From a virus (lineage: Duplodnaviria > Caudoviricetes), in IMG/VR virus record IMGVR_UViG_3300025875_000027, positions 1 through 57,294 of that record: a stretch of 57,294 nucleotides of DNA; one strand, 5' to 3'. Every line of letters begins with the position of its first letter. Position 1 is the first letter of the stretch. The notes below the pieces were generated by a model. The model was not told the DNA's origin and searched no databases. It worked only from the letters and a program-made list of their open reading frames with translations. The position numbers and the translations under genes are program-made. This document shows, piece after piece, positions 459 to 7,252 of this stretch.

Positions 459-665
459 TCAGCGGTGCTGCAGCCAGTCCTTGAAGACCAGCGGCCTTTC
501 GACGTCGCGGTAGAACGCCTCCAGCTCGGCGGCGTACCCCTTGCTCCACTCCTCGGCCCGCTCCTCCTGGGCCGCCCGCGCCGTGCGGTAGGACTCGACG
601 AGGTCTGCGTGCTCGTAGGAGCAGTGGTGCGGGTGATGATCGGGCCCCCGCCGGCAGGTGCTCAT
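459..665 (-). CDS. hypothetical protein (68 aa)
   Basis: ATGA overlap with the primase stop; GC3-rich codons. Confidence 0.6.
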   Translation of the reverse strand: MSTCRRGPDHHPHHCSYEHADLVESYRTARAAQEERAEEWSKGYAAELEAFYRDVERPLVFKDWLQHR

Positions 666-3358
666 CCTCCGGCGAGCGGGTCCACGTCGAACGAGTCAGG
701 CGTCGAGACACCCTGGTTGATCGGGTCGGCCCGCAGCGTGCAGTAGAACCCGCGGGTCGTCCGATCGTGGTACTGCCTGAAGCCCTTCTTCGACATCTTC
801 CGCCCGAACGCGATCTTGCTCATGGCCCGCACGCGGTTGCTGTCGCACCACCGCAGGTAGACCTGGAACAGCTGCTTCGTCGCAGTCCAGGTGACCTCGG
901 ACGGCGCGAACATCTCCCCGAGGAAGTCGCCGAACTCGTCCTCCTCCTCGAAGTAGTCCAGCGTCGCCAGGTGGGCGGCCGGCGGGCGGCCCAGGCGACC
1001 GCGATGCCACTCGGTCGCGCCCCTGACCGCCCAGGCGAGCACCCCCGGAAGCTCGCGGGCGATGATGTCGTCCTCCAGGTCGTAGTCGACCTCCTCCGGC
1101 GGCACGACGACGTTCCACGGGACGATGTGGATGCGGCGCCGCAGGGCCTCGTCGTCGGGGATGTGCGGCAGGTGGTTCGTGACGAGGTGGATCTTCCCGG
1201 CCAGCTTGAAGTCGATGAAGTCCTGCCCCATGCCGCGGGCGGTGATGAAGTCCGAGCCCGAGAGCCGCTTGACCAGCGCGGCGTCCAGGCGGGCGCCCTC
1301 GGGCGTCTCCGACGTCGTGAGCAGGCGACGGCCGGCCAGACCCATGATCTCGGTCGGGTGCCCCTCGTTCTTCTTCGCCAGCAGTGTCGTCGACGGCACC
1401 ACGCGGGCGAAGTCGCCCATGAGGTGCGTGAGCACGTTGATGAACACCGACTTCCCGGTGTTCGGCCGCCCCTGGTGGATGAAGAAGACCTGCTCGGAGG
1501 TGGAGCCCGTGATCGAGTAGCCGACGATCCGCTGCAGGTAGGCCCGCATCTCCTCGGCGGGGTGCGCGTGCTCGATGTATCCCAGCCACTTCGGCGCCGG
1601 CGCGTTCGCCTCGAAGCGCACCGGGGTCTGGCGCCGCAGCAGGTGGGCCGGGTTGTGCTTCATCAGCTCGCCCGTGCGCAGGTCGACCACGCCGTTCAGG
1701 CAGTTCAGCAGCATCGGGTCGGCGTCGAAGGCCGCGGGGTCGGCGTTGAGCAGCCCCGTGGTCTTCAGGACGCTCGACGTCGAGCGGTACTTGGCGTCGA
1801 AGCGCTGCGTGGCGCACCAGTCCAGGAACTCCTCGTAGTCCGAGGTCTCCTTCTTGCCCTTCTCGTACTTGCGGGTCGAGTACAGGTGTCCCTCCAGCGC
1901 GGGCAGCTGGTCGATCATCTCCATCGCGGCGCGCTGGCCCGCCAGCTTCGACTCCGACCAGCGCCCCTCCTCCTCGATGTACTCCATCCAGCGGTCGGTG
2001 GCCGAGATGTACTTCAGCCGCGTGCCGAAGAGAGCGACGACGCGCTCGGCGTTGCCCTTGTCGTCCCAGGAGTGCTTGACCCACTCGGCCGCCGTCTGCG
2101 TGGACAGAGGAGTCGCAAGCTGTACGGCTCCGGGTCCGTCGCCGACTGCCATAGCGAGATCAGCAGGAACCAGCTCGCCAGCAGCACTATCAGTATCTCC
2201 GCCATCGGTCAGCCCTTCCGGCCGCGGCGGTACTCCCAGTTCAGCATCGGCTCCAGGACGAACATCCACAGCAGCTGCCCGATTCCCGCCCCCAGGGCGA
2301 ACCCCAGCGGCACTCCCATCGTCCACACCAGCACTAACAGCCACAGTTCCATCGCTCACCATCTCCTCGAACGCGGCCTGCAGGTGAGCAGGCGGCTGAT
2401 AGCCCGGCGACAGGGGGTCGTCGGAGTCCTTCGGCGGCAGCGCGGGCTCCGCGCGACGCACCTGCGAGCGCCACTTGCTGGCGATGTCCCCGCCCGACCA
2501 CCCACCCCCGACGGGAGCGGCCTCACCGAACGCGCGCATCGCCTGCTCCATGGTGAGGCTGTTCCAGTCGGCCAGCGCGAGGCTCGCCAGACGGTAGGCG
2601 GCGTCGGCCTGGATCTTCTCCCAGCCGCGCCCCTTCTCGTCGGTCCTGCCCTCGGGCCACGAGGCGATGCCCTGCAGCTCGCGCACCACCGACTCGACCG
2701 CGGCCTGGGCGTAGGCGTCGCCGCGGCCCCCGACCAGCTCGACCGGCTCGCTCACCGCGTGCTTCTCGGGCACCGCCAGGCCCTCGACCCAGCTGGCCGG
2801 CAGCTCGGGGAGCTCCTCGCGCCGCATGACGCCCAGCCTGACGACGGCGTTCCCCTGCGGACCCGGCCGCGCCTCCAGCAGGCGGTACTCGGCGCCCGTG
2901 TCGGGATGCGTCGAGCCCGGCCCGACGGCGTAGCGGTGCTCGGGGCGGATGATCTCCACGTTGCCGCCAGGCAGCTCGCCCAGGAAGCGGTCGCTGGAGA
3001 CCCCCGCGGGCAGGCGGTAGAGGTAGATGCCCGAGCGGGTCGAGATCCGCGAGGTGATGCGCGGCGCCGGCGGCAGCTTGCCCCAGTTCTTGCTCGCCGC
3101 GGTGAGCGTGGTCAGCCCGTGCTTGCCCTCGTACTCGTCGACGTCGAGCCCGACGACGCCCTCGGGCAGCCGGAGGCCCAGGTTGGCCCCGGTGTGCTCG
3201 GGGTCATCGAGCCATGCCTGTACGTCGGCGGCCGACGGGTACGGCGCGCCGCGCCCGGTCCAGCCCTGCGGCGGCGGCGACTTCTGTCCTGCGGGGAGCG
3301 GCAGTGCACCCCATCCTGCGGCTGCCCAGTCGTGACCTGCCGCCTCGAAGGCGCTCAC
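662..3358 (-). CDS. bifunctional primase/polymerase (Prim-Pol) fused to a D5-like SF3 helicase
   Basis: N-terminal NLGLRL..VVGLDVD, GIYLY, GPGSTHP; C-terminal D5_N region LLNCLNGVVDLRTG, Walker A GRPNTGKS, ITARGM, LVTNHLP, ALRRRI; GTG start overlaps the upstream stop (GTGA). Confidence 0.92.
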   Translation of the reverse strand: MSAFEAAGHDWAAAGWGALPLPAGQKSPPPQGWTGRGAPYPSAADVQAWLDDPEHTGANLGLRLPEGVVGLDVDEYEGKHGLTTLTAASKNWGKLPPAPRITSRISTRSGIYLYRLPAGVSSDRFLGELPGGNVEIIRPEHRYAVGPGSTHPDTGAEYRLLEARPGPQGNAVVRLGVMRREELPELPASWVEGLAVPEKHAVSEPVELVGGRGDAYAQAAVESVVRELQGIASWPEGRTDEKGRGWEKIQADAAYRLASLALADWNSLTMEQAMRAFGEAAPVGGGWSGGDIASKWRSQVRRAEPALPPKDSDDPLSPGYQPPAHLQAAFEEMVSDGTVAVSAGVDDGSAAGVRPGGGNRAAAVDVRPGADAELGVPPRPEGLTDGGDTDSAAGELVPADLAMAVGDGPGAVQLATPLSTQTAAEWVKHSWDDKGNAERVVALFGTRLKYISATDRWMEYIEEEGRWSESKLAGQRAAMEMIDQLPALEGHLYSTRKYEKGKKETSDYEEFLDWCATQRFDAKYRSTSSVLKTTGLLNADPAAFDADPMLLNCLNGVVDLRTGELMKHNPAHLLRRQTPVRFEANAPAPKWLGYIEHAHPAEEMRAYLQRIVGYSITGSTSEQVFFIHQGRPNTGKSVFINVLTHLMGDFARVVPSTTLLAKKNEGHPTEIMGLAGRRLLTTSETPEGARLDAALVKRLSGSDFITARGMGQDFIDFKLAGKIHLVTNHLPHIPDDEALRRRIHIVPWNVVVPPEEVDYDLEDDIIARELPGVLAWAVRGATEWHRGRLGRPPAAHLATLDYFEEEDEFGDFLGEMFAPSEVTWTATKQLFQVYLRWCDSNRVRAMSKIAFGRKMSKKGFRQYHDRTTRGFYCTLRADPINQGVSTPDSFDVDPLAGG
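2014..2205 (-). CDS. putative nested membrane peptide MAEILIVLLASWFLLISLWQ... (63 aa)
   Basis: Same alternative frame, starting 3 nt after the previous nested ORF stop; hydrophobic N-terminus. Confidence 0.45.
   Translation of the reverse strand: MAEILIVLLASWFLLISLWQSATDPEPYSLRLLCPRRRRPSGSSTPGTTRATPSASSLSSARG
2209..2352 (-). CDS. putative nested membrane peptide MELWLLVLVWTMGVPLGFALGAGIGQLLWMFVLEPMLNWEYRRGRKG (47 aa)
   Basis: Alternative frame inside the primase linker; GAGGAG/GGTGA upstream; codons mostly end in G/C. Confidence 0.55.
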   Translation of the reverse strand: MELWLLVLVWTMGVPLGFALGAGIGQLLWMFVLEPMLNWEYRRGRKG

Positions 3359-3624
3359 GCCTCGATACCCGAGACGACCCGCTGACGCACAGCGCCGTGC
3401 GCGGCCATCGCCTGGTCCTCGACGGCCTCGTTCACGCGGTGCTGCAGCTGCGCGGTGGCCAGCTGCCAGTCGCGGATGTCCTGCTCGTCGTAGCGGCGGT
3501 GTCCACCAGCGGTGCGGGTGCACGGGGGGCCGATGGGCGGGTCTTGCAGGTCCCAGCCCTTCAGCGTCATCGGGTGCACCCCGATCTTGTCGGCGGCCTG
3601 CGCGAGGGTGAGCTTCATGGCCAC
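3355..3624 (-). CDS. MerR-type HTH DNA-binding protein
   Basis: LTLAQAADKIGVHPMTLKGW...RTAGGHRRY; GAGGAGG SD. Confidence 0.85.
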   Translation of the reverse strand: MAMKLTLAQAADKIGVHPMTLKGWDLQDPPIGPPCTRTAGGHRRYDEQDIRDWQLATAQLQHRVNEAVEDQAMAAHGAVRQRVVSGIEA

Positions 3625-3647
3625 CTCCTCTCAGTAGCGGGACGCCT

Positions 3648-3690
3648 ACCGTACACCGCCTTGCACCGCAGTCAAACGTAGTGGTAGCTT
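3648..3690. promoter_or_regulatory. overlapping divergent sigma70-type promoters
   Basis: Minus strand TTGACT-N16-TACGGT; plus strand TTGCAC-N18-TAGCTT. Confidence 0.55.
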
Positions 3691-3721
3691 CGTGCTCCCC
3701 GCCAACGACCAGGAGGTCGCC

Positions 3722-4162
3722 ATGACCGACACGAACCCCTCCGGCACCCAGCGCATCACGCAGGAGCGCGCCCGCCAGCTCAACGAAGAGGGCTACAGCA
3801 TCGCCGACGACCTCGGCTACACCGCCAACGAGCTGGCGCTGGCCGCTCAGGGGTACCTCTGGGCCAACGAGCAGCTGCAGTTCTCGATCCCCGCGAAGAT
3901 CAAGGAGCTGGAGCGCACCATCGCTGCGCTGCCCCGCCTTGCCATCACCAGTGGCGCCCGCCGCGAGCTGTCCAGCCTGATCCAGGAGATGAAGCTGGGG
4001 CCGCTGAACTTCGTCGGCCTCCCGCCGTCGTGGCCCTGGGCTCAGACGGCCTTCAAGCCCAGCGGAGACCCCGTGCGCAACCTGGAGAAGGCCGGCGCCC
4101 TCATCGCCGCCGAGATCGACCGCACCCAGGCGTCGATCGAGGGCATCGCGGTCTCCAGCTGA
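3722..4162 (+). CDS. conserved phage hypothetical protein
   Basis: ERARQLNEEGY..DD..ELALAA..WPW..FKP..RNLEKAGALIAAEIDR pattern; CCAGGAGG SD. Confidence 0.8.
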   Translation: MTDTNPSGTQRITQERARQLNEEGYSIADDLGYTANELALAAQGYLWANEQLQFSIPAKIKELERTIAALPRLAITSGARRELSSLIQEMKLGPLNFVGLPPSWPWAQTAFKPSGDPVRNLEKAGALIAAEIDRTQASIEGIAVSS

Positions 4163-4499: not shown

Positions 4500-4663
4500 A
4501 GATCTGCTCGATCTGCGCCTGGGTGCACATGGACGCGCCAGAGCGCGCGCAGGAGCCCATCACCGTCATCAACGGGCAGGCCGTCTGCCACGACCACATG
4601 GAAGCCGCCTCCCTCGGCCGTGACCACCGACACGCCGCCGTTCTCGCCGGCGCCCGACTGTAG
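4496..4663 (+). CDS. small Cys/His protein (55 aa)
   Basis: MKICSIC...VCHDH; ATGA coupling; not in the ORF track. Confidence 0.6.
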   Translation: MKICSICAWVHMDAPERAQEPITVINGQAVCHDHMEAASLGRDHRHAAVLAGARL

Positions 4664-4671
4664 GAGCGCTC

Positions 4672-4812
4672 ATGAAGCTCACCATCCGCTGGAACAAGAC
4701 CTACCGCACCTGGGATGTCAGGACGCCACACCAGGGATACCTGATCGCTGCGGACCCGACATGGGCCGGCGCGCTCGCCAAGGCGAACACCTATCTGCAG
4801 GTGCACGCATGA
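4672..4812 (+). CDS. hypothetical protein (46 aa, MKLTIRWNKTYRTWDV...)
   Basis: AGGAG SD; stop overlaps the next ATG. Confidence 0.6.
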   Translation: MKLTIRWNKTYRTWDVRTPHQGYLIAADPTWAGALAKANTYLQVHA

Positions 4813-5384
4813 CGCAGGTGCTTTATCTTCGCCGTGCTGACTGGCGGGCGCGCAGTTGCACACAGGCCGAGGTCGTCGACTTCATCGAGCGCGTGCACTA
4901 CGCCGGCGGCGCCCCGAACACGTCCGTAGCGCGACACGGCCTGTGCCCGGTCGATGACGACAAGCTGGCTGGTGTGGCTTTGTGGTTGCCGCCGACCCGA
5001 CGGGCCGCCGAGTCCGTTGACCGGGACAACCCGCGGGGTGTTCTGGCTCTCTCTCGACTGTGCATCGCGCCGGGGATGCCCACCAACTCCGCGAGCTTTC
5101 TGCTGGGCGCCTCGATGCGCCGGATAGACCGGGCGGCCTGGCCGACGCTGCTTACCTACGCCGACACCCGTGAGGGGCACACCGGGGCGATCTACCGCGC
5201 GACCAACTGGGAGTGTCTGGGCGAGGTTCCTGGATCTGACGCCTGGGCACATCGGGTTACCGGCGAACGTCGTGGTCGTAAGCGGGGGAAGCGAAACCTG
5301 TCGGCTGTGGAGATGCGTGAGCTGGGGTTCGAGCAGTTGCCGAAGATGCCGAAGATCAAGTTCGTCCATAGGAGTGACGCATGA
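4809..5384 (+). CDS. Mom-like (GNAT-fold) DNA adenine modification enzyme
   Basis: FIERVHY, LSRLC, NSASFLLG, TYAD..GHTGAIYRATNW motifs of the Mu Mom-like family. Confidence 0.8.
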   Translation: MTQVLYLRRADWRARSCTQAEVVDFIERVHYAGGAPNTSVARHGLCPVDDDKLAGVALWLPPTRRAAESVDRDNPRGVLALSRLCIAPGMPTNSASFLLGASMRRIDRAAWPTLLTYADTREGHTGAIYRATNWECLGEVPGSDAWAHRVTGERRGRKRGKRNLSAVEMRELGFEQLPKMPKIKFVHRSDA

Positions 5385-7252
5385 GCGGCACGCTGCAGAC
5401 CGTCCTCGACTCCATCGGCTATTTGCTGCGCCCCCAGCAGCAGCGCCTCTACGACGCCCTCTCGCCGAACAACACCGACATGCGCACATCCGGCGTCGTC
5501 GCCCAAGCCGGCACGGGTACCGGTAAGTCCCTCGCCGTGCTGTGCGCCGCGGTCGACTGGGCCCGCAAGACGCACAAGACCTCCCTCGTGGTCTGCCCGA
5601 CCAACGTGCTGCTCGACCAGTACCTCACCGTGGACGCCCCGCGGGTCTCGGCCGCCACCGGTGTGACGATCGAGAGTCTGAAGGGCCGCAACCGCTACCT
5701 CTGCGAGTCCGCGAACGGCTTCAGCGACATCTCCCAGCCGCCGGCGTGGGTCATGCCCGAGATCCCCGCCATGAGCGACCACCTGGCAGACATGTTCAAC
5801 GGCGGGCCCGCGTTCGAGCCCGAGAACACCCAGTGGTTCGGCTGCCCCGGTGGCGAGGAGTGCGACCCCGAGCTCACCTGCCACTACCGCCAGCAGAAGA
5901 TCCGCGCGCAGGCCGCTGACGTCATCGTCACGAACAGCCACCTGCTGATCATCGACAACCAGTTCAAGCGGATGCAGGCCGCCGACCCCGACTTCGGCCG
6001 CAAGAAGCCCCCGGCCATGGAGCAGGACGACCGCGACTTCGAGCCGGACGAGTACCAGCAGCCCGAGGAGGAGCTGCCCATCCTGATCTTCCCGCCGCTC
6101 GGCGTCGTCTTCGTCGACGAGGCCCACGTCTTGGAGGACAGTCTGCGCGAGTTCGCCAGCCGCTCGATTCCCTCCAGCGCCTGCGACGGCCAGCTCCTCG
6201 GCTACTGGATCGACAGCCAGGTCAACCAGCTGCCGACCGACCGCCGCGGCCAGAAGGAGGCCACGGCCATCACCGGCGACGCCGACCTCGCCGCGGCGCT
6301 GCAGGACATGGCTGCCGTCCCCGAGAACACCCCGAAGGGCATCAGGCTGGCCAAGCGGGTGCGCGAGGCCGCCGAGTCGGCCGCCTACGTCCTCCAGCGC
6401 GCCCAGAACAAGGCGTACAGCTCGGGGTCCGCGGTGCTCTACCTGCAGCCCGCCGAGCGCGGGACCAACCAGTCGAACAAGCTCGTCTCGACGCAGATCG
6501 ACATGAGCCTGGCCGCCGCGGGCATCCTCACCTCGCAGCCGTTCGGGATGGTCTCGGCCACCATCCCGAAGTCGATGCGCAACGCGCTCGGCGTGCCCGA
6601 GGCGCTCTTCGTCGACGTCGGCCACCCCTTCGACTACTCGCGCCAGGCCCGCCTGGGCTTCTCCGCGTACACCGGGGCCTGGAAGTACGCCGACCGCGCG
6701 AACAAGCAGGCTCGCGCCGAGGAGATCCAGCAGCGCGTGCTGGCCGCGGGCGGCGGCGCCCTCCTGCTCTTCCCGAGCTACCGCGATCTGGAGGAGGTCT
6801 ACAAGCAGATCGCGGGCCCCCTGCACCTGGCGGGCCTGACCGTGCTGAAGCAGGAGCGCGAGTCGAACAAGGCGCTGCTCGGCGAGCGGTTCAAGCGCGA
6901 CGGCAACGCCGTCCTCTTCGGTACCGAGAGCTTCGCCACCGGCTTCGACGCGCCGGGTAGCGCACTGCGGTTGGTCAGCATCTGGAAGCTGCCCTACCCC
7001 GGCCTCGACCCGGTGACCAAGGCCATCAGCGCGCGGGACTACACCCGCTACCAGGACATGATGCTGACCAAGGTCGCCCAGGCCGCAGGTCGCCTCATCC
7101 GCACCTCCACCGACGTCGGAGAGGTCTGGATCTCCGACGTGCGTGCCCGCGGCACGATCCTCGGCACGGGCGACCCGATGCTGCGCCACTTCGACGAGTT
7201 CCAGCTGATCCCCGCCGCCCCGCGGCCGGCCGACGACATCGAGATGAACTGA
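5381..7252 (+). CDS. DinG/YoaA-family SF2 helicase
   Basis: Q motif RPQQ, AGTGTGKS, LKGRNRYLC plus Cys cluster, ADVIVTNSHLL, DEAH, SAT, LFPSY, QAAGRLIR..DVG. Confidence 0.88.
   Translation: MSGTLQTVLDSIGYLLRPQQQRLYDALSPNNTDMRTSGVVAQAGTGTGKSLAVLCAAVDWARKTHKTSLVVCPTNVLLDQYLTVDAPRVSAATGVTIESLKGRNRYLCESANGFSDISQPPAWVMPEIPAMSDHLADMFNGGPAFEPENTQWFGCPGGEECDPELTCHYRQQKIRAQAADVIVTNSHLLIIDNQFKRMQAADPDFGRKKPPAMEQDDRDFEPDEYQQPEEELPILIFPPLGVVFVDEAHVLEDSLREFASRSIPSSACDGQLLGYWIDSQVNQLPTDRRGQKEATAITGDADLAAALQDMAAVPENTPKGIRLAKRVREAAESAAYVLQRAQNKAYSSGSAVLYLQPAERGTNQSNKLVSTQIDMSLAAAGILTSQPFGMVSATIPKSMRNALGVPEALFVDVGHPFDYSRQARLGFSAYTGAWKYADRANKQARAEEIQQRVLAAGGGALLLFPSYRDLEEVYKQIAGPLHLAGLTVLKQERESNKALLGERFKRDGNAVLFGTESFATGFDAPGSALRLVSIWKLPYPGLDPVTKAISARDYTRYQDMMLTKVAQAAGRLIRTSTDVGEVWISDVRARGTILGTGDPMLRHFDEFQLIPAAPRPADDIEMN

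Follow-up and report, generated by a model that had tools for sequence, protein, structure and literature searches.

Two small membrane-type open reading frames nested out of frame in the inter-domain linker of a phage primase-helicase gene

The primase-helicase gene of the uncultured phage described here is likely to harbor, in the linker between its PrimPol and D5 helicase domains, genuine overprinted genes for accessory membrane proteins; two proteins are probably encoded by the same stretch of DNA. The candidates are two small open reading frames, ORF1 and ORF2, each lying wholly inside the primase coding sequence, on its strand and in another frame, with its own ATG and SD-like site. The source is a 57-kb high-GC virus sequence (57,294 nt; IMGVR_UViG_3300025875_000027; Caudoviricetes), the whole of which was analyzed and is called the window below. 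The phage is known from metagenomes only, and groundwater samples contain it. The host gene and its surroundings comprise the following features:

662..3358, minus strand: primase-helicase coding sequence of 898 aa with a GTG start, a single open frame in the ORF list
2867..3328, minus strand: Prim-Pol domain, aa 11-164 (Pfam PF09250, E 2e-18)
1571..2050, minus strand: D5_N domain, aa 437-596 (Pfam PF08706, E 1.9e-21)
3355..3624, minus strand: helix-turn-helix/excisionase-like gene upstream of the primase (phrog_66, phrog_4745, E about 5e-5)
2090..2383, minus strand: predicted disordered inter-domain linker, aa 326-423 (AlphaFold2, homologue comparison)

The identity of the host gene is further defined by a PHROGs match to the DNA primase family phrog_1156 (E 2e-146) and by two additional Pfam domains, DUF5906 (aa 629-741) and Pox_D5 (aa 805-866). 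Its GTG and the TGA that terminates the upstream gene share the sequence GTGA, a 4-nt overlap between genes on the same strand, and the start residue is the same in homologues; no sigma-70-like promoter was found in 1800-3800. In an AlphaFold2 model built from a 23-sequence alignment (mean pLDDT 80.3), residues 326-423 fall below a pLDDT of 50 and are devoid of secondary structure, whereas the flanking domains mostly reach 85-98. This linker is hypervariable in length and sequence among homologues, close ones having a shorter or different version. Since it is predicted to be disordered, the host stretch should tolerate overprinting. An intein was rejected as an account of the insert: the Pfam scan of the whole primase returned Prim-Pol, D5_N, DUF5906, Pox_D5 and a sub-threshold GTPase match, with no Hint or splicing domain, and the low complexity and modelled disorder of the insert also disfavor it.

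Within this stretch sits a segment of anomalous codon usage, over which the nested features are distributed:

2123..2353, minus strand: segment of host codons 336-412 in which the +1 frame, in place of the primase frame, carries the codon-position signature (GC3, A/T-ending codons)
2363..2368, minus strand: GAGGAG, SD-like site for ORF1, 10 nt before the ATG
2209..2352, minus strand: ORF1, 47 aa and TGA, +1 frame, ATG start
2213..2219, minus strand: GGAAGGG, SD-like site for ORF2, within the end of ORF1, 7 nt before the ATG
2014..2205, minus strand: ORF2, 63 aa, +1 frame, ATG start
2122..2205, minus strand: first 28 codons of ORF2, with an N-terminal hydrophobic helix and a Pro-x-Pro-Tyr motif, bearing the nested-frame coding signature
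2014..2121, minus strand: tail of ORF2, 35 codons and TGA, Arg-rich and then Ser/Thr/Pro-rich, overprinting the start of the conserved D5_N region

The preliminary description of this DNA had remarked that the primase frame switches to T/A-ending codons in the linker, and the counts bear this out: among host codons 336-412, 33/77 end in T and 45/77 in A or T, where the 42 remaining confident genes have 4.8% and 7.7% (binomial p 2.5e-23 and 2.8e-30); the primase outside the segment has 42/822, to be set against the segment's 33 T-ending and 45 A/T-ending codons of 77. Host GC3 there drops to about 0.35-0.5 (0.42) from about 0.97 for the primase, and the nested +1 frame has GC1/2/3 values of 0.62/0.42/0.90, a gene-like order (GC1>GC2<<GC3); the antisense frame that shares the nested third position has the shadow pattern GC1<GC2. 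The same picture emerges from the frame-specific GC3 plot that had been suggested as a check: in 90-nt windows primase GC3 runs at 0.87-1.00 along the gene and dips to 0.40-0.63 between about 2413 and 2084, while the third-position phase of the nested frame rises to a GC of 0.77-0.93. The total GC of the segment (0.64-0.67) stays inside the range of the gene (0.63-0.78).

This frame-specific shift in composition is unique in the genome. Among same-strand nested ORFs of at least 30 aa in 43 confident genes (n=68), nested GC3 exceeds host GC3 in only two, namely ORF1 (0.91 vs 0.40) and ORF2 (0.76 vs 0.67). Genome-wide, 120/10,745 windows of 30 codons have a GC3 below 0.6, and 109 of these 120 fall in the ORF 662-3523, a figure that takes the linker together with a spurious 5' extension, which is the upstream gene read in the wrong frame; the remaining ones (9 and 2) are at the ends of two other genes. 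Windows with a Gly/Ala/Asp/Val fraction of at least 0.6 number 129 elsewhere in the genome, with mean GC3 of 0.86-0.91 and a minimum of 0.70, and 40 in the primase ORF, with GC3 means of 0.41-0.48. As such windows elsewhere keep a high GC3, amino-acid composition alone is not the cause of the codon anomaly.

ORF1 and ORF2 share one frame, +1 relative to the primase, and are joined by the junction TGA-CCG-ATG; the coordinates first given for them (2352-2209 and 2205-2014, minus strand, 3 nt apart) hold, as do the GAGGAG and GGAAGGG reported upstream of their ATGs. The GAGGAG doubles as conserved Glu-Glu codons of the primase. With duplex energies computed against an anti-SD tail, the ORF1 site is the strongest among 48 out-of-frame internal ATGs (-10.1 kcal/mol), and the ORF2 site (-7.0 kcal/mol) is equaled or surpassed in 4/48, itself and ORF1 included. 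In both ORFs a hydrophobic segment is followed by a basic tail: ORF1 runs from about 30 hydrophobic residues into a basic C-terminal end, the 19-residue Kyte-Doolittle maxima of ORF1 and ORF2 are of transmembrane grade (1.93 and 2.21), and the two rank as the top 2 in hydropathy of 227 alternative-frame segments. One correction concerns ORF2: its coding-like signal is confined to about the first 28 codons, and in the tail of 35 codons it is the primase frame that has the normal signature.

Relatives with DNA were sought in viral, metagenome and genome contigs, and five were informative (L004, L005, L006, L002 and L003); the genome-contig search found nothing. L004 is a metagenomic relative whose primase is 67-72% identical to that of the window (dS 0.52, dN 0.20 outside the linker). 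Its linker has 16/30 A/T-ending codons against 68/819 elsewhere, and carries one ORF2-like nested ORF of 61 aa (19-residue hydropathy maximum 1.79) with the stop position of ORF2, the same SD and the same stop-CCG-ATG-G start context as in the window; the duplex energy of its SD-like site equals that of the ORF1 site. This ORF aligns gap-free, codon for codon, with the first 28 codons of ORF2, and the tail is nearly identical because the primase sequence is conserved there. ORF1 is an in-frame unit of 147 nt, absent from L004 and bounded at both ends by the same stop-3 nt-ATG-G context. Comparative support comes from one relative with DNA for the ORF2 type and from none for ORF1. As a side observation, the nested stop in L004 is made by an AGG codon (2 AGG among 59 Arg codons), which is suggestive; this codon could equally reflect simple descent from or to the AAG codon that the window has at that site.

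Over the 28 aligned codons, identity between ORF2 and its L004 counterpart is 8/28 in the nested frame and 11/28 in the host frame, and the most-changed position is the host third, i.e. the nested second, with 16 differences against 11 and 11. Hence, any constraint on the nested product acts at most on its hydrophobic character. In the shared segment, 11/17 of the A/T-ending codons of the window are also A/T-ending in L004, against 7/25 at four-fold sites outside it (Fisher p 0.027), and at 4/11 further sites L004 has A/T endings specific to its lineage, where the background is 8.3% (p 0.01); four-fold sites of the window and L004 agree in 57% of cases, where independence would give 42%. This persistence of A/T endings argues for continuing selection for T at the nested second position, and thereby for hydrophobic residues.

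It also bears on a different history, in which a former +1-frame cassette was recombined in frame into the linker and the nested ORFs are now silent fossils. That such an insert stays open is almost automatic, because host-frame stops need a T at the nested third position, where it is rare; moreover, the residues of ORF2 are no better conserved than those of the host frame, and ORF1, a self-contained unit of 147 nt that L004 lacks, has neither homologues nor comparative support. However, at a GC3 equilibrium of about 0.92 and with L004 substantially diverged from the window, A/T endings should have been lost under neutrality, whereas both lineages keep 15-17/28 of them, lineage-specific ones included, along with an intact start, SD and stop. 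We regard a silent relic as unlikely for the locus, and as possible for ORF1 alone.

The preliminary description had left it open whether a two-gene unit was overprinted on, or inserted into, a tolerant linker. The anatomy, the open primase frame, the predicted disorder and the ORF of L004 speak for such a unit, and selection on the individual nested residues did not emerge from the comparison; insertion fits ORF1 as an in-frame unit missing from L004. It had also named, as the observation that would count against the idea, homologues that conserve the primase-frame residues and carry stops in the nested frame. In the alignment with homologous primases the linker is variable and the nested frame is open in L004; stops are found in L005, where they belong to an unrelated linker with normal codon usage. 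This relative, at 60% identity, lacks both a nested ORF and the GAGGAG and shows normal GC3; the whole anomalous segment is absent from it and from the short linker of P0004.

The remaining relatives, and the composition of the segment itself, are pertinent to the reading that only the primase frame is translated: the anomaly would then be a cluster of rare codons, for instance one slowing translation between the domains. Because codons with T in second place always specify hydrophobic residues, hydrophobic +1 ORFs would be a by-product of such a cluster. When the host protein and the regional third-base composition were held fixed in simulation, the joint p for few nested stops, ATG-ORF coverage and hydropathy was 0.045 for the window and 0.20 for L004; hence the ORF features are not independent of the T-rich third positions and, given these and the host protein, are only mildly surprising. 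The linkers of L006 and L002 also have a relaxed GC3 (0.56 and 0.64) with +1 ORFs that are not hydrophobic; these ORFs were rejected as genes, being dissimilar to each other and to the membrane type, with openness p of 0.36 and 0.55. What makes us consider a rare-codon cluster very unlikely is that nothing of the kind occurs in L005, in L003, in three cultured actinophage primase-helicases or elsewhere in the genome, and that it leaves unexplained the preference for Asp over Glu, the Gly/Ala/Asp/Val make-up and why, in two lineages, an SD-ATG coincides precisely with the left edge of the anomaly. To our knowledge, described pausing clusters are far below 77 codons at 58% rare endings.

An element acting at the level of DNA or RNA, be it a replication origin, a structured RNA or a programmed frameshift fusing a membrane anchor to one half of the primase, appears extremely improbable. 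Origins inside replication genes are known, e.g. the lambda ori in gene O, and one match in the phage database, Lactobacillus phage A2, has a rep_origin annotated under a primase. An embedded origin was rejected here as no iterons were found and the total GC of the segment is, as given above, within the range of the gene. A structured RNA was rejected on a fold z-score of +0.79 and the lack of any Rfam match up to E 1, and a programmed -1 frameshift on the same z-score and the lack of an XXXYYYZ heptamer on the minus strand over 2420-2000. Furthermore, a shift upstream cannot fuse PrimPol to the helix, because a nested-frame TGA stands directly before the ORF1 ATG (window, L004).

Sequence searches with the nested products themselves were consistently empty. 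Pfam and PHROGs gave no family for ORF1 or ORF2 at E up to 0.1; tblastn of the products against phages gave nothing below E 8; a word search for ORF2 gave no candidate; phmmer with ORF1 as query returned 0 matches among 1.84 billion representatives; and an Atlas search gave nothing usable. In local tblastn against the window and nine loci, ORF1 found itself only (best other E 0.5) and ORF2 found only low-complexity tail matches to out-of-frame junk. No free-standing small hydrophobic homologue adjoining the primase was seen in the metagenomic relatives. Pairwise scores of ORF1 against ORF2 and against the L004 ORF are at the level of shuffled sequences (z 0.3 and 1.0), and for this reason the grounds for deriving ORF1 by tandem duplication are restricted to the shared start context and the similar layout.

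Contigs from sequencing runs were compared with the locus. In run X1, a contig of 541 nt (depth 42) matches 2063-2603 with zero differences, and no variant letters are reported within 2108-2345 in the run contigs. In two further X1 contigs, 2089 is connected to 2349 and 2098 to 2350 across a run of unknown letters, an indication of relatives whose linker differs. In run X2 the contigs stop at 2135 and restart at 2378, with no cover between. The sequencing runs listed for the phage include no RNA data set.

Genes embedded out of frame in phage genes are already known. The Rz1 gene of lambdoid phages is embedded in Rz in the +1 frame and specifies a small envelope-directed protein, a lipoprotein spanin of the lysis cassette that partners with the product of the host gene; the likeness lies in a small envelope-directed protein wholly inside another phage gene in the +1 frame. 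A spanin of this type, or a holin, was rejected: the primase that hosts the ORFs belongs to the replication module, there is no family match, and no lipobox was apparent by eye. In mycobacteriophage Patience, embedded out-of-frame ORFs were found by mass spectrometry, one of them inside a DNA polymerase III alpha gene (PMC4324244); like those described here, they lie on the same strand, in another frame and wholly inside an annotated actinophage gene. The Patience ORFs rest on peptides, whereas ours rest on composition and one relative, and the portions of the Patience report drawn on here do not describe them as membrane proteins or as located in an inter-domain linker (PMC4324244). A GC3 phase shift was not employed there, Patience having a lower GC content.

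A second parallel is the ShiLan type, in which an in-frame insert of a phage DNA methylase hides an out-of-frame HNH gene (PMC11855218). According to the parts of that report considered here, the insert leaves the host frame stop-free while carrying a gene in another frame, is predicted to loop out harmlessly, and is present or absent among homologues in actinophages; its hidden gene is a homing endonuclease, which explains its mobility, and no RBS was seen (PMC11855218). Our locus likewise has an insert that is missing from homologous host genes and is read through in frame. It differs in specifying small hydrophobic peptides with SD-like sites and no nuclease domain, and therefore nothing indicates homing; a ShiLan-type homing element was rejected, given products of 47 and 63 aa that are hydrophobic and, at E up to 0.1, fall in neither a Pfam nor a PHROG family. 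A third parallel comes from eukaryotic viruses, where the polymerase spacer in hepatitis B virus is overlapped by the preS/S envelope gene and a linker of apple stem grooving virus by the movement-protein gene (PMC8227390). As far as the sections of this review used here go, both are cases of a poorly conserved tether between replication-enzyme domains that is overprinted, with a membrane protein as the partner in hepatitis B virus, and the overlaps evolve asymmetrically or under weak constraint, the linker being the tolerant partner (PMC8227390). Those are long, well-documented overlaps in small viruses (PMC8227390), whereas the present one is in a 57-kb dsDNA phage with no evident compression pressure, and its nested genes are tiny and variable in number.

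Under our favored reading, that of overprinted accessory membrane-protein genes, the primase mRNA would be read in two frames across the inter-domain linker. Ribosomes that start at the primase GTG would yield a disordered tether, rich in Gly/Ala/Asp/Val, that links PrimPol with the D5 helicase; others would start internally at the SD-ATG sites in the +1 frame and produce two small, presumably bitopic membrane proteins, ORF1 of 47 aa and ORF2 of 63 aa, with ORF2 translationally coupled to ORF1 via TGA-CCG-ATG. Each protein would begin with a short N-terminus, continue as a single hydrophobic helix and end in a basic tail; by the positive-inside rule the basic tail of a membrane protein should stay in the cytoplasm, and we predict the same for these. 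The ORF2 type would be the older gene, common to the window and L004, whereas ORF1 would have been added in frame, as 147 nt, in this phage only, be it as an inserted unit or as a tandem copy that has since diverged. Because close relatives carry none, one or two such genes, these most likely specify accessory, moron-like membrane proteins whose expression accompanies that of the early or replication genes. We would guess that their target is the host envelope or a superinfecting phage and that they are not essential parts of the replisome.

A more far-reaching proposal, which we consider quite unlikely, is that in this clade the linker of the primase-helicase serves as a permanent cradle, or landing pad, of overprinted genes: the ORF2-type product, translated from the primase mRNA, would be a membrane tether of the replisome, its Arg-rich cytoplasmic tail binding DNA or the acidic linker, and the non-hydrophobic +1 ORFs of L006 and L002 would be independent births at the same place. 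The locus would then be the dsDNA-phage counterpart of the hepadnavirus case, where a membrane-protein gene is read across the tether of the replication enzyme. The membrane protein p16.7 of phi29 offers a parallel for a membrane tether with a DNA-binding cytoplasmic tail.

Gene callers give this locus one gene, and the protein databases lack the nested products; phage annotation misses small membrane proteins nested in the manner of ORF1 and ORF2. What is the wobble base of a host codon serves as the second base of the nested one, and therefore a hydrophobic +1 peptide can arise or be tuned by changes that are silent in the host. If real, the locus would give a dsDNA phage a clean example of a second gene sharing the disordered tether between two domains, and it would display a change in copy number (none, one, two) among close relatives. 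In that event, a simple frame-specific scan of GC3 could find such genes in high-GC phages.

The virus record (57,294 bases; G+C 68.5%) is complete or near-complete (CheckV 98%). The features of the primase locus are:

3358..662, minus strand, primase-helicase CDS of 898 aa with a GTG start
3355-3624, minus strand, upstream helix-turn-helix gene, the stop of which overlaps the primase GTG start as GTGA
2352..2209, minus strand, ORF1, 47 aa, nested in the primase-helicase gene
2205..2014, minus strand, ORF2, 63 aa, nested in the same gene

An extension of the primase to 3523 in the ORF list is spurious; homologues begin at the GTG. The protein matches phrog_1156 'DNA primase' across its full length (E 2e-146) and contains the Pfam domains Prim-Pol (residues 11-164), D5_N (437-596), DUF5906 (629-741) and Pox_D5 (805-866). 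AlphaFold2, with a 23-sequence alignment, models the PrimPol, helical and D5 domains confidently and leaves inter-domain residues 326-423 structureless (pLDDT 27-45). This linker is the sole hypervariable part in the alignment of close homologues, and the version in the window is the longest there.

Several further elements flank the locus. Immediately past the stop of a small minus-strand gene (459-665) lies an inverted repeat of 15 nt (422-456; loop of 5 nt) that resembles a terminator for the primase operon. Three copies of a 13-14-nt motif (65-81, 133-148 and 349-362; two direct and one inverted, 93-100% matching), adjoined by a CA-rich tract at ~200-260, occupy the low-coding left end downstream of this operon and may be operators or iteron-like sites. 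The divergent plus-strand arm has a gene at 4620-5384 that matches phrog_1384 (E 1e-26), a family of Mom-like DNA modification proteins, and is followed by a helicase gene (5381-7252).

The preliminary description had reported a switch to T/A-ending codons in the linker, and a frame-specific profile of third-position G+C (GC3; 90-nt windows) confirms it: values for the primase frame are 0.87-1.00 over the gene but drop to 0.40-0.63 from ~2413 to 2084, where the phase corresponding to the nested third position reaches a G+C of 0.77-0.93. This is among the strongest signals in the genome. Among host codons 336-412, which fall wholly within the predicted disordered stretch, 45 of 77 end in A/T (33 of them in T), versus 7.7% in other genes; the count for the rest of the primase is 42/822. 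Nested GC3 exceeds host GC3 in only ORF1 and ORF2 of the 68 same-strand ORFs of at least 30 aa inside 43 confident genes. Thirty-codon windows with GC3 <0.6 number 120 of 10,745: 109 of these lie in ORF 662-3523, a count that pools the linker with the spurious 5' extension, and the other 11 at two gene ends. When 2122-2352 is read in all six frames, G+C is 0.62/0.42/0.90 at the three codon positions of the sense +1 frame, the pattern of real genes here, whereas a shadow pattern (0.42/0.63/0.89) appears in the antisense frame that shares its third position.

The two ORFs are themselves present as first described, in one common +1 frame with the junction TGA-CCG-ATG, as are their upstream sites: GAGGAG 10 nt before the ORF1 ATG and GGAAGGG 7 nt before that of ORF2. 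About 30 residues of the ORF1 product are hydrophobic, and its end is basic. The ORF2 product has a hydrophobic helix at its N-terminus, a Pro-x-Pro-Tyr motif, a cluster of Arg and a tail rich in Ser/Thr/Pro. Of 227 alternative-frame segments genome-wide, these two have the highest 19-residue Kyte-Doolittle maxima (1.93 for ORF1 and 2.21 for ORF2); the usual cut-off for a membrane helix is 1.6. The nested coding signature of ORF2 stops after ~28 codons: its tail, with the composition of ordinary out-of-frame text, overlaps the conserved start of the D5_N region, and there the signature of the primase frame prevails. Profile and sequence searches of protein and phage databases detected no homologue of either product.

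Simpler causes of the shift were also considered. Gly/Ala/Asp/Val residues abound in the host-frame linker, but 129 windows in other genes with a fraction of these residues of 0.6 or more have mean GC3 of 0.86-0.91, never <0.70, versus 0.41-0.48 for the 40 equally rich windows of the primase ORF. In overall base composition the segment is unexceptional (G+C 0.64-0.67). A DNA or RNA element, or a frameshift, is very improbable as the source; the segment was searched and found to be without iterons, a stable RNA fold (z +0.79), an Rfam match or a slippery heptamer. An assembly slip is ruled out because an independent public-run contig is identical to the window over 2063-2603, with zero differences. 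Two more contigs from a public sequencing run holding the phage match both linker flanks (2089-2350) and skip ~250-260 nt, the gap being filled by unknown letters, which suggests that relatives whose linker is shorter or otherwise different occur alongside the phage.

Five relatives with DNA were informative, and the nested frame stands in one close homologue, L004, and fails in another, L005. L004 (primase 67-72% identical; dN 0.20 and dS 0.52 outside the linker; four-fold sites there 57% identical versus 42% expected if independent) displays the same GC3 drop, with 16/30 linker codons A/T-ending versus 68/819 elsewhere. It has a single +1 ORF of 61 aa with the same stop-CCG-ATG-G start context and the same GAGGAG ahead; the first 28 codons of ORF2 align with it gap-free, codon for codon, the hydrophobic helix is kept (1.79), and the same TGA terminates both. 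In L004 this TGA is formed by a rare AGG Arg codon (2/59 Arg codons in that gene) at codon 401, in an Arg-Leu-Arg-Tyr stretch; the window has AAG Lys there and L005, which is without the nested ORF, CGC. The 147 nt extra in the window (49 codons, in frame) are exactly ORF1, its stop and three bases, with the same start context at both ends. The rival reading of a fossil cassette that now serves only as linker is rather unlikely, and is at its most plausible if confined to ORF1; with base composition in these genomes pushed so strongly towards G+C, such a relic would be expected to have decayed.

In L005 (60% identical), linker codons are used normally, GAGGAG is absent and the +1 frame is interrupted by stops; the linker anomaly is likewise absent from L003 (44% identical) and from the primase-helicases of three cultured actinophages, SpecialK, Pumpkins and BAjuniper. 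L006 and L002, 44-48% identical, form a sister clade with another N-terminal domain; in their linkers (L006:2064-2345 and L002:3377-3571), host GC3 is lowered to 0.56 and 0.64, and the +1 frame stays open for 93 and 64 codons (GC3 0.89 and 0.84). The sequences encoded there are protein-like, non-hydrophobic and similar neither to each other nor to ORF1/ORF2. Directly downstream of its primase/helicase gene, Curtobacterium phage SpecialK, a distant relative, has a free-standing 61-aa 'membrane protein' gene (gene 37, L027:3827-4012; hydropathy maximum 2.25), with no sequence similarity seen to ORF1 or ORF2 products; small membrane genes adjoining the primase may be a recurring neighbourhood.

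The comparative evidence is weaker than it first appears. Over the 28 codons shared with L004, the nested proteins are identical at 8/28 positions and the host proteins at 11/28, and the host wobble is the most changed position (16 differences versus 11 and 11). When only wobble bases were redrawn, with the host protein and regional third-base composition fixed, the observed combination of few nested stops, ATG-ORF coverage and hydropathy was reached in 4.5% (window) and 20% (L004) of draws; the open frames of L006 and L002 were unremarkable (p 0.36 and 0.55). Therefore, the ORF features follow largely from T-rich wobbles in a Gly/Ala/Asp/Val-rich linker. A rare-codon cluster with the nested ORFs as its by-product is distinctly unlikely. 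The data favour selection maintaining these T's, since A/T endings are shared with L004 at 11/17 sites of the common segment versus 7/25 four-fold sites elsewhere (p 0.027), and L004 has further lineage-specific ones (4/11 sites versus a background of 8.3%, p 0.01). If the +1 frame must encode hydrophobic residues, the T-rich host wobbles are directly explained, and so are the predominance of Asp over Glu in the host frame and its Gly/Ala/Asp/Val-rich composition, because nested position 3 sets the host first base and nested position 1 the host second base.

ORF1 and ORF2 are probably genuine overprinted genes whose translation starts internally on the primase mRNA, that of ORF2 being coupled to that of ORF1. 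Embedded out-of-frame phage genes are already known: such ORFs have been seen by mass spectrometry within genes of the actinophage Patience, one of them in a DNA polymerase III alpha gene (PMC4324244), and a phage methylase is described in which an in-frame insert hides an out-of-frame HNH gene (PMC11855218). The closest analogues in logic are the spacer of the hepadnavirus polymerase, which is overlapped by the envelope gene, and the apple stem grooving virus linker overlapped with the movement-protein gene (reviewed in PMC8227390). The literature searched held no account of genes nested within the primase-helicase linker of a phage. The products are predicted to be small single-pass membrane proteins whose basic tails would be cytoplasmic. 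As close relatives have none, one or two such genes, we regard the proteins as accessory and not as replisome components, and our guess is that their target is the host envelope or a superinfecting phage.
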